NCBI RefSeq assembly: GCF_003334355.1
Contig: NZ_QOWP01000024.1
From: Escherichia coli
GTDB taxonomy: Bacteria > Pseudomonadota > Gammaproteobacteria > Enterobacterales > Enterobacteriaceae
Length of the DNA stretch: 64,000 nt
Strand: one strand, 5' to 3'
Part shown: one piece after another, positions 51,401 through 57,400 of the stretch
Position numbering within the stretch: position 1 is the stretch's first letter
Layout of the letters: each line of letters begins with the position of its first letter
Position numbers: made by a program

Positions 51401-54400
51401 GCTCACTGGTGACCTATTTTCCAGAATCGAATCACATGCTAACACTTGATAACCACGATCCATTAAGTGGCATTCCTGGCTATAAAAGTATTCCGGTTGA
51501 ATTAGAACCATCAAATTAATGCCTCTTCTCATTTCTTCTGCTGTCATCCGCACAGCAGAAGAATCCCTCATTGACTATTATCGCGCAATTTGCTCACATG
51601 GATTAAATTAAACTACATACTATAAGATATAAACTTCTGCCTACAGCTGTAAGAAACTCCGTTCAGTACTGAAGCGCCAGTCCTATTTCCTCTTTTCTCC
51701 GGCCTGTTATATTAAGCATACTGATTAACGATGCTTAACGTTATTCGCTTAATAAACATATTTGAAATGCATGCGACCACAGTGAAAAACAAAATCACGC
51801 AAAGAGACAACTATAAAGAAATCATGTCTGCAATTGTGGTTGTCTTATTACTGACCCTTACGTTGATAGCCATTTTTTCGGCAATTGATCAGCTGGGCAT
51901 TTCAGAAATGGGTCGCATTGCAAGAGATCTTACACATTTCATTATCAATAGTTTGCAAGACTGAAAATAAACAGCAAATTATAAATATGAAATGTTAAAA
52001 AAGTATCGATAAAAACTTTATTGTTTTAAGGAGATAAAATGTCGCTCGTTTGTTCTGTTATATTTATTCATCATGCCTTCAACGCTAACATTTTAGATAA
52101 AGATTACGCCTTCTCTGACGGCGAGATCCTGATGGTAGATAACGCTGTTCGTACGCATTTTGAACCTTATGAGCGGCATTTTAAAGAAATCGGATTTAAT
52201 GAAAATACCATTAAAAAATATCTACAATGCACTAACATCCAGACAGTGACGGTGCCTGTTCCTGCGAAGTTTTTACGTGCTTCAAATGTACCGACTGGAT
52301 TGCTTAATGAAATGATTGCTTATCTCAACTCGGAAGAACGCAATCATCATAATTTTTCAGAACTTTTGCTTTTTTCTTGCCTGTCTATATTTGCCGCATG
52401 CAAAGGTTTCATTACACTATTAACTAACGGTGTGCTATCCGTTTCCGGGAAAGTGAGAAATATTGTCAACATGAAGCTGGCGCACCCATGGAAGCTGAAA
52501 GATATTTGTGACTGCCTGTACATCAGTGAAAGCCTGTTGAAGAAAAAACTAAAGCAAGAGCAAACGACATTCTCACAGATTCTATTAGATGCCAGAATGC
52601 AGCACGCAAAAAATTTGATACGCGTAGAAGGTTCAGTCAATAAAATTGCCGAACAATGTGGTTATGCCAGTACATCTTATTTTATTTATGCGTTCCGCAA
52701 ACATTTCGGCAACAGTCCGAAGAGAGTTTCTAAGGAGTATCGTTGTCAAAGGCACACGGGTATGAACACGGGCAACACGATGAATGCTTTAGCTATTTGA
52801 TTATTTGCTAACGAGTAGTCAACCACACACGCTACGTAAGAATTAAATGGGGCAGCCATTCCCTGCCCCGCGTTGTTTTTAGGCGATATATTTATTGAAA
52901 TAAATAAGTGACATTCATCACATATTTATGCATTTGCATAACCTGTTGCATGATTATTTATGATCTCAATTCGGTATTTTGTCAGCAAAATACAATAATT
53001 TATTAAATATCAATATATTAGTTGTTTATCGGCGAGAAATTACTTAGTAGAACAGAAAGTAATGTCAACGCTTTATGGACTGTTATTTCCCTTTTTTTAG
53101 CTAAATCTGCTATCTCTTTATGTGACTAACTTCACTTACATCCACTTATTTCTCTTCGTAAAATTACTTTGGAATTAAGTACAATAAGAAGAGGAACATT
53201 TATGAAGTCTGCATTAAAGAAAAGTGTCGTAAGTACCTCGATATCTTTGATACTGGCATCTGGTATGGCTGCATTTGCTGCTCATGCGGCAGATGATGTA
53301 AAGCTGAAAGCAACCAAAACAAACGTTGCTTTCTCAGACTTTACGCCGACAGAATACAGTACCAAAGGAAAGCCAAATATTATCGTACTGACCATGGATG
53401 ATCTTGGTTATGGACAACTTCCTTTTGATAAGGGATCTTTTGACCCAAAAACAATGGAAAATCGTGAAGTTGTCGATACCTACAAAATAGGGATAGATAA
53501 AGCCATTGAAGCTGCACAAAAATCAACGCCGACGCTCCTTTCATTAATGGATGAAGGCGTACGTTTTACTAACGGCTATGTGGCACACGGTGTTTCCGGC
53601 CCCTCCCGCGCCGCAATAATGACCGGTCGAGCTCCCGCCCGCTTTGGTGTCTATTCCAATACCGATGCTCAGGATGGTATTCCGCTAACAGAAACTTTCT
53701 TGCCTGAATTATTCCAGAATCATGGTTATTACACTGCAGCAGTAGGTAAATGGCACTTGTCAAAAATCAGTAATGTGCCGGTACCGGAAGATAAACAAAC
53801 ACGTGACTATCATGACAACTTCACCACATTTTCTGCGGAAGAATGGCAACCGCAAAACCGTGGCTTTGATTACTTTATGGGATTCCACGCTGCAGGAACG
53901 GCATATTACAACTCCCCTTCACTGTTCAAAAATCGTGAACGTGTCCCCGCAAAAGGTTATATCAGCGATCAGTTAACCGATGAGGCAATTGGCGTTGTTG
54001 ATCGTGCCAAAACACTTGACCAGCCTTTTATGCTTTACCTGGCTTATAATGCTCCGCACCTGCCAAATGATAATCCTGCACCGGATCAATATCAGAAGCA
54101 ATTTAATACCGGTAGTCAAACGGCAGATAACTACTACGCTTCCGTTTATTCTGTTGATCAGGGTGTAAAACGCATTCTCGAACAACTGAAGAAAAACGGA
54201 CAGTATGACAATACAATTATTCTCTTTACCTCCGATAATGGTGCGGTTATCGATGGTCCTCTGCCGCTGAACGGGGCGCAAAAAGGCTATAAGAGTCAGA
54301 CCTATCCTGGCGGTACTCACACCCCAATGTTTATGTGGTGGAAAGGAAAACTTCAACCCGGTAATTATGACAAGCTGATTTCCGCAATGGATTTCTACCC

Positions 54401-57400
54401 GACAGCTCTTGATGCAGCCGATATCAGCATTCCAAAAGACCTTAAGCTGGATGGCGTTTCCTTGCTGCCCTGGTTGCAAGATAAGAAACAAGGCGAGCCA
54501 CATAAAAATCTGACCTGGATAACCTCTTATTCTCACTGGTTTGATGAGGAAAATATTCCATTCTGGGATAATTACCACAAATTTGTCCGTCATCAGTCAG
54601 ACGATTACCCGCATAACCCCAACACTGAGGACTTAAGCCAATTCTCTTATACGGTGAGAAATAACGATTATTCGCTTGTCTATACAGTAGAAAACAATCA
54701 GTTAGGTCTATACAAACTGACGGATCTACAGCAAAAAGATAACCTTGCCGCCGCCAATCCGCAGGTCGTTAAAGAGATGCAAGGCGTGGTAAGAGAGTTT
54801 ATCGACAGCAGCCAGCCACCGCTTAGCGAGGTAAATCAGGAGAAGTTTAACAATATCAAGAAAGCACTAAGCGAAGCGAAATAACTAAACCTTCATGCGG
54901 CGGATTTTTCCGCCGCCTTATTGAGCGAGATAGCGATGCACGTTACAGCCAAGCCCTCCAGTTTTCAATGTAATCTCAAATGTGATTACTGTTTTTACCT
55001 TGAAAAAGAGTCGCAGTTTACTCATGAAAAATGGATGGATGACAGCACTCTGAAAGAGTTCATCAAACAATATATCGCAGCGTCTGGCAATCAGGTCTAT
55101 TTTACCTGGCAAGGCGGTGAACCCACTCTGGCTGGCCTGGATTTTTTCCGTAAAGTTATTCACTATCAACAACGCTATGCAGGCCAAAAACGTATTTTTA
55201 ATGCATTACAAACGAATGGCATTTTATTGAATAATGAATGGTGTGCCTTTCTCAAAGAACATGAATTTCTGGTTGGTATCTCGATCGATGGCCCCCAGGA
55301 GTTACATGACCGTTACAGACGCAGTAATTCAGGTAACGGTACTTTTGCAAAAGTGATAGCAGCCATCGAGCGTCTGAAATCATATCAAGTAGAGTTTAAT
55401 ACGTTAACCGTCATTAATAACGTTAATGTCAATTACCCTCTTGAGGTTTATCATTTTTTAAAATCTATCGGCAGTAAACATATGCAATTTATCGAATTGC
55501 TAGAAACCGGGACGCCGAATATTGATTTCAGTGGTCATAGTGAGAACACATTCCGTATCATTGATTTTTCTGTGCCTCCCACGGCTTATGGCAAGTTTAT
55601 GTCAACCATTTTTATGCAATGGGTTAAAAACGATGTGGGTGAAATTTTCATTCGTCAGTTTGAAAGCTTTGTCAGCCGTTTTTTGGGGAATGGGCATACA
55701 AGTTGTATTTTCCAAGAGTCCTGCAAGGATAATCTGGTTGTTGAAAGTAATGGAGACATTTACGAATGCGACCATTTTGTCTATCCACAGTACAAAATTG
55801 GAAACATTAATAAATCTGAACTCAAAACGATGAACAGTGTACAACTGACAGCGCAAAAAAAACGGATTTCAGCGAAATGTCTGAAATGTGCATATAAACC
55901 TATCTGCAATGGCGGTTGTCCTAAGCATCGTATTACTAAAGTAAACAATGAGACTGTTTCTTATTTTTGCGAAGGTTATAAAATCCTTTTTTCAACCATG
56001 GTACCTTATATGAACGCCATGGTGGAGTTAGCTAAGAACAGAGTACCGCTTTACCACATTATGGATGTTGCAAAACAAATGGAGAATAATTAATAACGCT
56101 CTCTTTTAGCTCCATTCTTAGCCTCCTTCTTATGACCTTAACAAGGCACCCGACATAAATTCCTGTCGGGTGTGTCGTCATCATCATCTTCCCTTGCGAA
56201 AACCCTGGCTTACGTGGTATGCGTCAGGGCATTAGCAATACCCTTGATTATCAATAGCATAACCATAACCACTGAAAATTAAAAATTTCTATATATTTCA
56301 TATTGTTAAATGATACTTAAATAAATTTCATCAGTAAATCATTGCCATAGATAATCATTGGATGGCACAATCAATTTTCGCTAATGATAACCATTCCCAT
56401 TACGTTTTGTATGTTGATAGCAAAGTATCTCTGTCTGCTGAAGCCCTTTTGGCTGCGTAAGAATAATAAAACTTCAGTGTTGTTAATCATTATTATCCTC
56501 GCCATGATCCTTGGCGTGGTTAAAATTCAGGTCTGGTTAAACGACTGGAATAATGATTTTTTCAATGCGCTAAGCCAGAAAGAAACCGATAAGCTTTGGC
56601 AGCTTGTCCTTTGGTTCCCTGCCCTGCTGGGGATCTTTGTATTAATATCCGTAAACAAAACATGGTTAATTAAACTACTGACTATTCGCTGGCGCGAATG
56701 GTTAACAGATTACTACCTTAATCGGTGGTTTGCAGATAAAAACTACTACTTCACGCAGATCTACGGCGAGCATAAAAATACAGATAACCCTGACCAACGT
56801 ATCGCTGAAGACATTCTCTTACTGATCAGCAAAACGCTCAGTCTTTCATTTGGCTTCATCCAGTCACTTAGCATGCTGATCACCTTTACCGTTATTCTTT
56901 GGGAAAGCGCGGGTACGCTCTCATTCACTGTTGGTGGAACAGAATGGAATATCCAGGGGTATATGGTCTATACCGTCGTGCTCATTGTGATCGGTGGAAC
57001 TTTATTTACCCATAAGGTGGGTAAACGTATTCGTCCGCTTAATGTGGAAAAACAACGTAGCGAAGCGACATTTCGAACAAATCTTGTGCAGCATAATAAG
57101 CAGGCAGAACTGATTGCGCTAAGCAATGCTGAGTCTCTACAACGCCAGGAGTTGAGCGACAATTTTCATACCATTAAAGAGAACTGGCATCGTTTAATGA
57201 ATCGTCAGCGGTGGCTTGATTACTGGCAGAATATTTATTCGCGCTCGCTTAGCGTTCTTCCCTACTTTCTGTTATTGCCGCAGTTTATTAGCGGGCAGAT
57301 CAATCTGGGCGGACTGATGAAATCGCGCCAGGCATTTATGCTGGTATCGAACAATTTAAGCTGGTTTATTTATAAATATGACGAACTTGCTGAACTGGCT

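Follow-up and report, generated by a model that had tools for sequence, protein, structure and literature searches.

We analyzed ydeN and ydeM, two neighboring genes annotated as encoding a sulfatase and its maturase, in a stretch of 64,000 nucleotides (nt) of Escherichia coli DNA (RefSeq assembly GCF_003334355.1, contig NZ_QOWP01000024.1), which we refer to as the window. The open reading frames of the window, read together with the RefSeq annotation of a 99.5% identical record, place ydeP, safA, ydeO, ydeN, ydeM, yddA, yddB and pqqL on the plus strand. ydeN extends from an ATG at 53202 to a stop codon ending at 54884 (plus strand; 560 amino acids [aa]), and ydeM from an ATG at 54936 to a stop codon ending at 56093 (plus strand; 385 aa). 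A first-pass annotation of this DNA had located the pair at 53202-56093, which was exact to the base: these are two open reading frames on the same strand, with the coordinates of the RefSeq annotation in NZ_CP080223. Two earlier in-frame starts were rejected, namely TTG 53169 for ydeN, since ATG 53202 is preceded at 8 nt by a strong Shine-Dalgarno sequence (AAGAGGA) and agrees with RefSeq, and TTG 54921 for ydeM, since ATG 54936 yields the N-terminus Met-His-(I/V)-Thr-Ala-Lys-Pro conserved in all orthologues, which confirms this start codon. The YdeN protein of the window is letter-for-letter identical to UniRef YDEN_ECOLI, and its YdeM is identical to an existing "anaerobic sulfatase maturase" record; ydeN-ydeM is a named, annotated E. 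coli operon with predicted roles in standard databases, and as such is already known and ordinary. A megablast search with positions 53100-56200 demonstrated that 5326 of 5426 complete E. coli genomes (98%) carry the ydeNM stretch at a coverage of at least 80%. In single strains (NZ_CM136169.1, NZ_LS998785.1) the stretch is broken by the insertion sequence (IS) IS1 or IS2, and in the IS2-bearing strain the maturase gene is annotated as two pieces; these interruptions indicate occasional loss at an otherwise near-universal locus.

By its sequence, YdeN is a type I sulfatase of the Ser type with a predicted signal peptide; the first-pass annotation had called it a secreted Ser-type sulfatase. 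The Pfam Sulfatase domain (PF00884) matched residues 58-408 with E = 1e-70, covering model positions 1-301 of 301, and a regular-expression search located the type I signature, (C/S)-x-(P/A)-x-R-x4-T-G, as SGPSRAAIMTG at residues 132-142. The codons of this maturase recognition motif (S132-G-P-S-R136-A-A-I-M-T-G142) lie at 53595..53627 on the plus strand. In HMMER alignments, HGVSGPSRAAIMTGR of YdeN falls directly onto HPFCGPSRSAILTGR of ZgCgsA (9HH3) and likewise onto the motif of 6BIA (CGPSR), so that Ser132 coincides with the Cys that gives formylglycine in solved S1_19 sulfatases and can be placed at the formylglycine position. YdeN contains no cysteine at all, and no residue other than Ser132 could therefore be the formylglycine precursor.

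The Ser at this position is shared by the relatives of YdeN. Residues S132, G133, P134, S135 and R136 do not vary among 12 orthologues, drawn from 10 genera (Escherichia, Leminorella, Salmonella, Citrobacter, Yersinia, Proteus, Shewanella, Aeromonas, Iodobacter and Anaerobiospirillum), and of the 120 closest database matches, the 118 that are informative all have Ser at the formylglycine position. An exhaustive search of 50%-identity representatives showed the YdeN clade to be isolated, with identity falling from about 75% to 45% or less, and among the 29 nearest outgroup representatives 25 are of the Cys type and 4 of the Ser type (regular expression, with five motifs read by eye). Because these nearest outgroup representatives are mostly of the Cys type, Ser looks like a derived and fixed character of the YdeN clade. 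In an alignment of 41 sequences reaching down to 28% identity, D66, D67, R136, H185, H286, D345 and K364 are invariant, with K183 and N346 at least 90% conserved. The metal-binding and catalytic roles in this family belong to two N-terminal Asp residues, an Arg, the Lys and His of a GKWH motif, a further His, the Asp-Asn of an SDNG motif and a Lys, and we assigned the roles of the YdeN residues from this family knowledge.

An AlphaFold model of YdeN built from the same 41-sequence alignment had a mean predicted local distance difference test score of 90.5, with only residues 1-49 disordered. When this model was compared with the PDB using Foldseek, the S1_19 carrageenan sulfatases ZgCgsA and PsS1_19A/B were the best matches (E of about 1e-34; target-normalized template modeling score 0.80-0.82), followed by S1_16 and other carbohydrate sulfatases, with a Foldseek probability of 1.00 for solved sulfatases. 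The S1_19 enzymes (ZgCgsA, 9HH2/9HH3; Pseudoalteromonas PsS1_19A/B, 6B0J, 6BIA and 6PSM) also gave the best sequence matches, with E of about 1e-52, and their catalytic residues are identical to those of YdeN. They are, however, marine Cys-type enzymes that act on carrageenan galactose-4-sulfate and have 25-28% structure-based identity to YdeN, which differs from them in its Ser, in an extra segment of about 25 residues and in a longer C-terminal part. The link of YdeN to SulfAtlas subfamily S1_19 is nearest-neighbor evidence, taken from the best PDB sequence and fold matches, and our literature search for a SulfAtlas assignment of YdeN found no paper. None of the NCBIfam equivalog cutoffs was reached by YdeN, the best score being 124 bits against a cutoff of 481. 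The extra segment, at about residues 76-108 (53427-53525), contains VVDTYKIGIDKAIEAA and directly follows the metal-binding DD motif; it is absent from the solved S1_19 sulfatases, common to the relatives of YdeN, and modeled as helices with high confidence.

Residues 1-29 of YdeN resemble a Sec signal peptide when read by eye, with K2, K6 and K7, a hydrophobic core, and A27-H28-A29 before A30. This N-terminus, MKSALKKSVVSTSISLILASGMAAFAAHA, is followed by ADD and contains neither a twin arginine nor a lipobox Cys. YdeN is listed as periplasmic in a ribosome-profiling paper (PMC10746267), and proteomics has detected YdeN peptides in tolA outer-membrane vesicles as well as in O157 cultured anaerobically in rumen fluid.

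YdeM, as judged from its domains and motifs, is a cytoplasmic radical S-adenosylmethionine (SAM)/SPASM enzyme of the anaerobic sulfatase-maturating enzyme (anSME) type, with every cluster cysteine in place. It scored 502.6 bits with NCBIfam TIGR03942 (cutoff 349.45; model positions 1-362 of 363), and this anaerobic-sulfatase-maturase model is the only one whose curated cutoff YdeM passes, with models for maturases of peptides that are made on ribosomes and modified after translation (RiPPs) far below theirs. YdeM reaches neither the cutoff of NF010321, the clostridial-type model (254 against 441), nor that of NF010308, a maturase model of 412 positions (361 against 484). Pfam identified Radical_SAM (PF04055, E = 4.5e-22) and SPASM domains. 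The CxxxCxxC motif named in the first-pass annotation is present as CNLKCDYC at residues 12-19 (C12, C16 and C19), together with the auxiliary-cluster cysteines C257, C263, C278 and C328 and C315, C318, C324 and C345, the motifs CX9-15GX4C and CX2CX5CX3C, and the catalytic Asp279. Alignment of residues 4-359 with anSMEcpe (4K36; E = 6.5e-63) matched all 11 cluster cysteines, that is, the CX3CX2C motif and the eight auxiliary cysteines, as well as GGEPTL and the Cys-Asp pair, in which D279 falls on the anSMEcpe Asp that follows the third auxiliary-cluster cysteine. The natural partner of anSMEcpe (PDB 4K36-4K39) is a Cys-type sulfatase, whereas the neighbor of YdeM is of the Ser type. The cluster cysteines and D279 are invariant in five orthologues; the YdeM-like proteins in which they are kept are encoded beside YdeN orthologues in four other genera. 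The active-site alignment that the first-pass annotation had proposed as a check thus returned Ser132, with both the sulfatase signature and the radical-SAM cysteines retained.

Our comparison of loci demonstrated that the two genes stay together well beyond E. coli. In all seven loci analyzed from other genera (Yersinia pestis, Aeromonas veronii, Iodobacter, Salmonella enterica, Anaerobiospirillum, Proteus mirabilis and Leminorella), a radical SAM gene encoding 387-392 aa lies 3′ of the sulfatase gene on the same strand, across a gap of 45-225 nt, while the loci have unrelated flanking genes. For example, the A. veronii cassette has IS elements on its flanks, the S. enterica cassette lies inside an integrase/TraI element, and the P. 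mirabilis cassette shares a small contig with genes for Rep3 and MobA; ydeO was found near the cassette in none of the seven. A "ydeM-ydeN structure" has also been described on a Proteus plasmid (PMC8615141). In 7 of 8 loci the cassette has a lower GC content than its flanks. A comparison of two E. coli lineages gave a ratio of non-synonymous to synonymous substitution rates (dN/dS) of 0.05 for ydeN, where 27 differences are synonymous and 5 non-synonymous, and of 0.09 for ydeM (18 and 7, respectively); between genera, synonymous sites are saturated and dN is 0.10-0.28. The gene order kept amid unrelated flanks, together with this purifying selection, makes ydeNM look like a mobile two-gene module that is kept together and intact by selection. 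The first-pass annotation had called the two a functional enzyme/maturase pair, and this part of it gains comparative support from the seven other genera, the unrelated flanks and the purifying selection: that YdeN and YdeM work together is strongly supported, by evidence that is comparative and indirect. To our knowledge, a Ser-type sulfatase cannot be matured via the oxygen-dependent route of the formylglycine-generating enzyme (FGE), which explains why a maturase travels with ydeN.

A second YdeN-like sulfatase occurs on E. coli conjugative plasmids (565 aa, 77.5% identical, 303 member sequences). Its gene directly follows a porin gene and adjoins IS elements (locus L008, 3847-5544; locus L012, 5001-6698, on the IncF plasmid p14EC033d). 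A tblastn search for a ydeM-like gene beside this paralogue, even a degraded one, found none, and the plasmid sulfatase would consequently depend on a maturase supplied in trans.

The operon is set apart from its upstream neighbor. ydeO (52039-52800, plus strand), directly upstream of ydeN, is followed by an intrinsic terminator that our terminator scan located at 52848..52880 on the plus strand, with a GGGGCAG...CTGCCCC stem and then TTGTTTTT, and which separates ydeO from the ydeNM unit. The spacer between ydeO and ydeN (52801..53201, plus strand; 401 bp) is the presumed ydeNM promoter region, to which published work assigns the binding of GadX and AraC. It contains a sigma-70-like consensus match (-35 CTTACA at 53135; -10 TAAAAT ending at 53164), and promoter-like matches in 52700-56500 were not above those in shuffled sequence (8 against 10.2). 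The first-pass annotation had also noted an AT-rich stretch downstream of ydeO, and this was borne out, with a GC content of 44.0% for ydeN, 38.3% for ydeM and 31.7% for the spacer against 46.9% for the whole window. Rfam at its gathering thresholds gave no match in the ydeNM region, and a repeat search of the region gave only short, chance-like matches.

Between the two genes, a GC-rich hairpin lies at 54897..54916 on the plus strand, with the arms GCGGCGGA and TCCGCCGC around a TTTT loop, followed by CTTATTGAG (-18.7 kcal/mol, z = -3.1). It lies 20 nt upstream of the ydeM ATG, and the ribosome-binding site of ydeM is weak. At this position each of the seven other loci also has a GC-rich hairpin, with a stem of 6-14 bp that differs in sequence, and several of these hairpins are followed by a T run (L002 7680-7706, L003 7696-7719, L004 7696-7720, L005 7696-7719, L006 approximately 4875-4905, L007 1854-1877 and L009 6687-6714), and z-scores are between -2.9 and -5.1 in 7 of the 8 loci, which represent eight genera. 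On this comparison of sequences, the hairpin may be a conserved leaky terminator or an mRNA 3′ stabilizer that lowers the output of maturase relative to sulfatase. The mobility, the intercistronic hairpin, the derived Ser and the plasmid paralogue lacking a maturase gene add modest refinements and do not amount to a new kind of system.

We consider it quite likely that ydeNM is a self-contained operon for a periplasmic Ser-type sulfatase and its dedicated activating enzyme. The closest precedent in kind is AtsA/AtsB of Klebsiella pneumoniae, a Ser-type arylsulfatase and a radical SAM maturase with demonstrated activity. In that system, a Sec-exported periplasmic sulfatase with Ser in (C/S)xPxR is encoded in a two-gene operon with a cytoplasmic radical SAM enzyme that carries three [4Fe-4S] clusters and generates formylglycine before export; ydeNM has the Ser motif and the two-gene layout in common with it, and a like export and maturation are predicted for YdeN and YdeM. 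The two systems differ in that atsB precedes atsA, whereas ydeM follows ydeN after the hairpin, and in that YdeN, with its 124 bits against 481, lacks a close match among the named arylsulfatase models. E. coli also has AslA/AslB, another sulfatase gene beside an anSME-family gene; this pair is at a different locus outside the window and its genes are divergent, and YdeM is a paralogue that stays below the cutoff of NF010308. A passage of PMC11215262 cites work reporting that recombinant human sulfatases were more active in E. coli when AslB was overexpressed.

The first-pass annotation had placed the pair next to the acid-resistance regulators and proposed an expression analysis under ydeO induction; the tie that this implies was not supported. 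According to published work, binding of GadX to the ydeN promoter reduces the ydeN transcript (PMC4918353), and ydeN at pH 4.4 is among the most down-regulated genes, together with mal, xyl and tre genes (log2 -5.31, about 40-fold; PMC10746267). Passages of PMC10878103 state that ydeN and ydeM are co-transcribed and, citing Stringer 2014, that AraC targets ydeN directly and that ydeN expression is high in an araC mutant; the same paper shows ydeM to be up-regulated in the mouse gut in the araC mutant. Our search with the AraC half-site consensus TAGCN7TCCATA, allowing up to three mismatches, gave 463 matches in the whole window against 440 expected, and upstream of ydeN it gave only 7-of-10 matches with no tandem pair at 21-bp spacing; the search is uninformative, and the AraC site cannot be placed from the consensus alone. 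A short element, TTTAGCTAAATCTGCTATC, at 53096-53114 (plus strand), some 90 nt before the ydeN ATG, has TAGC on both strands; nothing else in the spacer resembles an AraC half-site even in part, and the search with the consensus did not reach significance. Membership of ydeNM in the EvgA-YdeO acid-resistance regulon, with induction alongside ydeP, safA and ydeO, could be argued from adjacency on the same strand and from the AT-rich character common to the stretch from ydeO to ydeM. We regard it as very improbable, given the terminator after ydeO, the 401-bp upstream region that ydeN has of its own, the effect of GadX, the fall at pH 4.4 and the unrelated contexts of the cassette in other genera; in addition, the YdeO-regulon paper (PMC4222967) names neither ydeN nor ydeM in its main text, which does not contain the word "sulfatase" either. 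These observations argue that the adjacency to ydeO is positional and specific to E. coli, not regulatory; a tie between ydeNM and acid resistance is not supported, and the adjacency should not be taken as co-regulation.

Two other explanations concern the pair itself. The low GC content of the cassette relative to its flanks, repression by AraC and GadX, the IS1/IS2 insertions in single strains and the absence of observed Ser-type maturation in laboratory E. coli would all suit a cryptic, horizontally acquired remnant that is silenced and unused, its frames intact only through recent acquisition. We think this unlikely, because the pair is present near full length in 98% of complete genomes, dN/dS is 0.05-0.09 within E. 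coli, the genera share the same catalytic and cluster residues, YdeN is detected by proteomics, and ydeM rises in the mouse gut in the araC mutant (PMC10878103). Alternatively, YdeM might not be dedicated to YdeN, its position being incidental, and might act as a general maturase (for AslA, YidJ and others) or as a SPASM peptide-modifying enzyme. Enzymes of the anSME family accept both Cys and Ser substrates, the plasmid paralogue of YdeN would need a maturase in trans, and YdeM has sub-threshold matches to the RiPP maturases DynA (219 bits) and DarW. The cutoffs, however, are passed by the anaerobic-sulfatase-maturase model and by no RiPP model, the adjacency of sulfatase and maturase is kept in seven other genera amid unrelated neighbors, and YdeN, being barred as a Ser-type enzyme from the FGE route, needs an enzyme of this kind; we therefore hold an incidental position of YdeM to be decidedly unlikely.

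If ydeNM is instead the self-contained operon that we favor, its operation can be outlined as follows. Transcription would begin in the AT-rich spacer past the ydeO terminator and, from the published work, be kept low by AraC and GadX. With a strong ribosome-binding site for ydeN, and with the hairpin and the weak site before ydeM, the maturase would probably be made in smaller amounts than the sulfatase. From the chemistry of the family, cytoplasmic YdeM would act on the YdeN precursor before it folds. With its SAM-binding [4Fe-4S] cluster and two auxiliary ones, YdeM would abstract a C-beta hydrogen of Ser132 in SGPSR and oxidize Ser132 to C-alpha-formylglycine. Such maturation would be oxygen-sensitive and hence favored in the anaerobic gut. 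The modified precursor would then leave via Sec, with the signal peptide cut after Ala29 and folding completed in the periplasm, where a divalent metal would be held by D66, D67, D345 and N346 and the hydrated formylglycine would attack the sulfate ester, helped by R136, K183, H185, H286 and K364. The substrate is the weakest inference of this outline: it would most likely be a small sulfated carbohydrate and, going by the nearest structural relatives, a 4-O-sulfated galactose or N-acetylgalactosamine unit of host glycans or of dietary carrageenan-like material.

Several points weigh against this reading or parts of it. The nearest solved relatives, from which the substrate guess derives, have only 25-28% structure-based identity to YdeN, and for one S1_19 enzyme, from the gut bacterium Akkermansia, no activity was seen on the substrates tested. 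As for the role suggested for the hairpin, the E. coli hairpin failed the terminator scan, its T tract being weak. Our literature search returned no report of sulfatase activity or a substrate for YdeN, or of formylglycine formation by YdeM. In passages of PMC6189696 and PMC8379841, both citing Benjdia 2007, laboratory E. coli is stated to mature only Cys-type sulfatases, deletion of aslB and ydeM does not abolish this maturation, both genes are termed "putative" maturases, and a third, unidentified system is suspected. Since the maturation seen is of the Cys type only and is not abolished by the loss of aslB and ydeM, YdeM has never been seen to act. ydeNM may be silent under standard aerobic growth, and maturation restricted to the Cys type in the laboratory fits an oxygen-labile, repressed YdeM system, while leaving room for a cryptic pair.

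A more specific proposal, which we put forward only tentatively and think rather doubtful as a whole, is that ydeNM is a mobile, self-sufficient cassette, spread on plasmids and integrative elements among gut and aquatic Gammaproteobacteria, in which the hairpin acts as a leaky terminator or processing site fixing a high ratio of sulfatase to maturase, and which in E. coli gives anaerobic access to 4-O-sulfated galactose or N-acetylgalactosamine of host or dietary glycans. If the pair is active in the anaerobic gut, it would allow E. coli to reach sulfated glycans of the host or the diet, and this would explain the strong purifying selection on an AT-rich cassette repressed by AraC and GadX. 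Were the cassette proposal true, it would also imply a role in gut colonization of a kind not yet demonstrated for any E. coli sulfatase.

Our survey of the window also recorded features beside and away from the operon. Antisense to the end of ydeM, RefSeq annotates YneP, a small protein of 40 aa (56059-56181, minus strand), which overlaps the final 35 nt of ydeM, and an imperfect inverted repeat (56132-56187) lies inside yneP. Upstream of the hipBA region, an unbroken open reading frame of 1806 aa at 37640-43060 (plus strand) is the counterpart of the "ECSE_1600 family autotransporter" annotated in a related strain. Finally, the interval between dgcZ and ydeE contains a full-length Rfam match (281.9 bits; 6533-6746, plus strand) to the Hfq-binding small RNA STnc560 (RF01407), and in a related strain RefSeq annotates the small proteins MgtS and MgtT at this interval.

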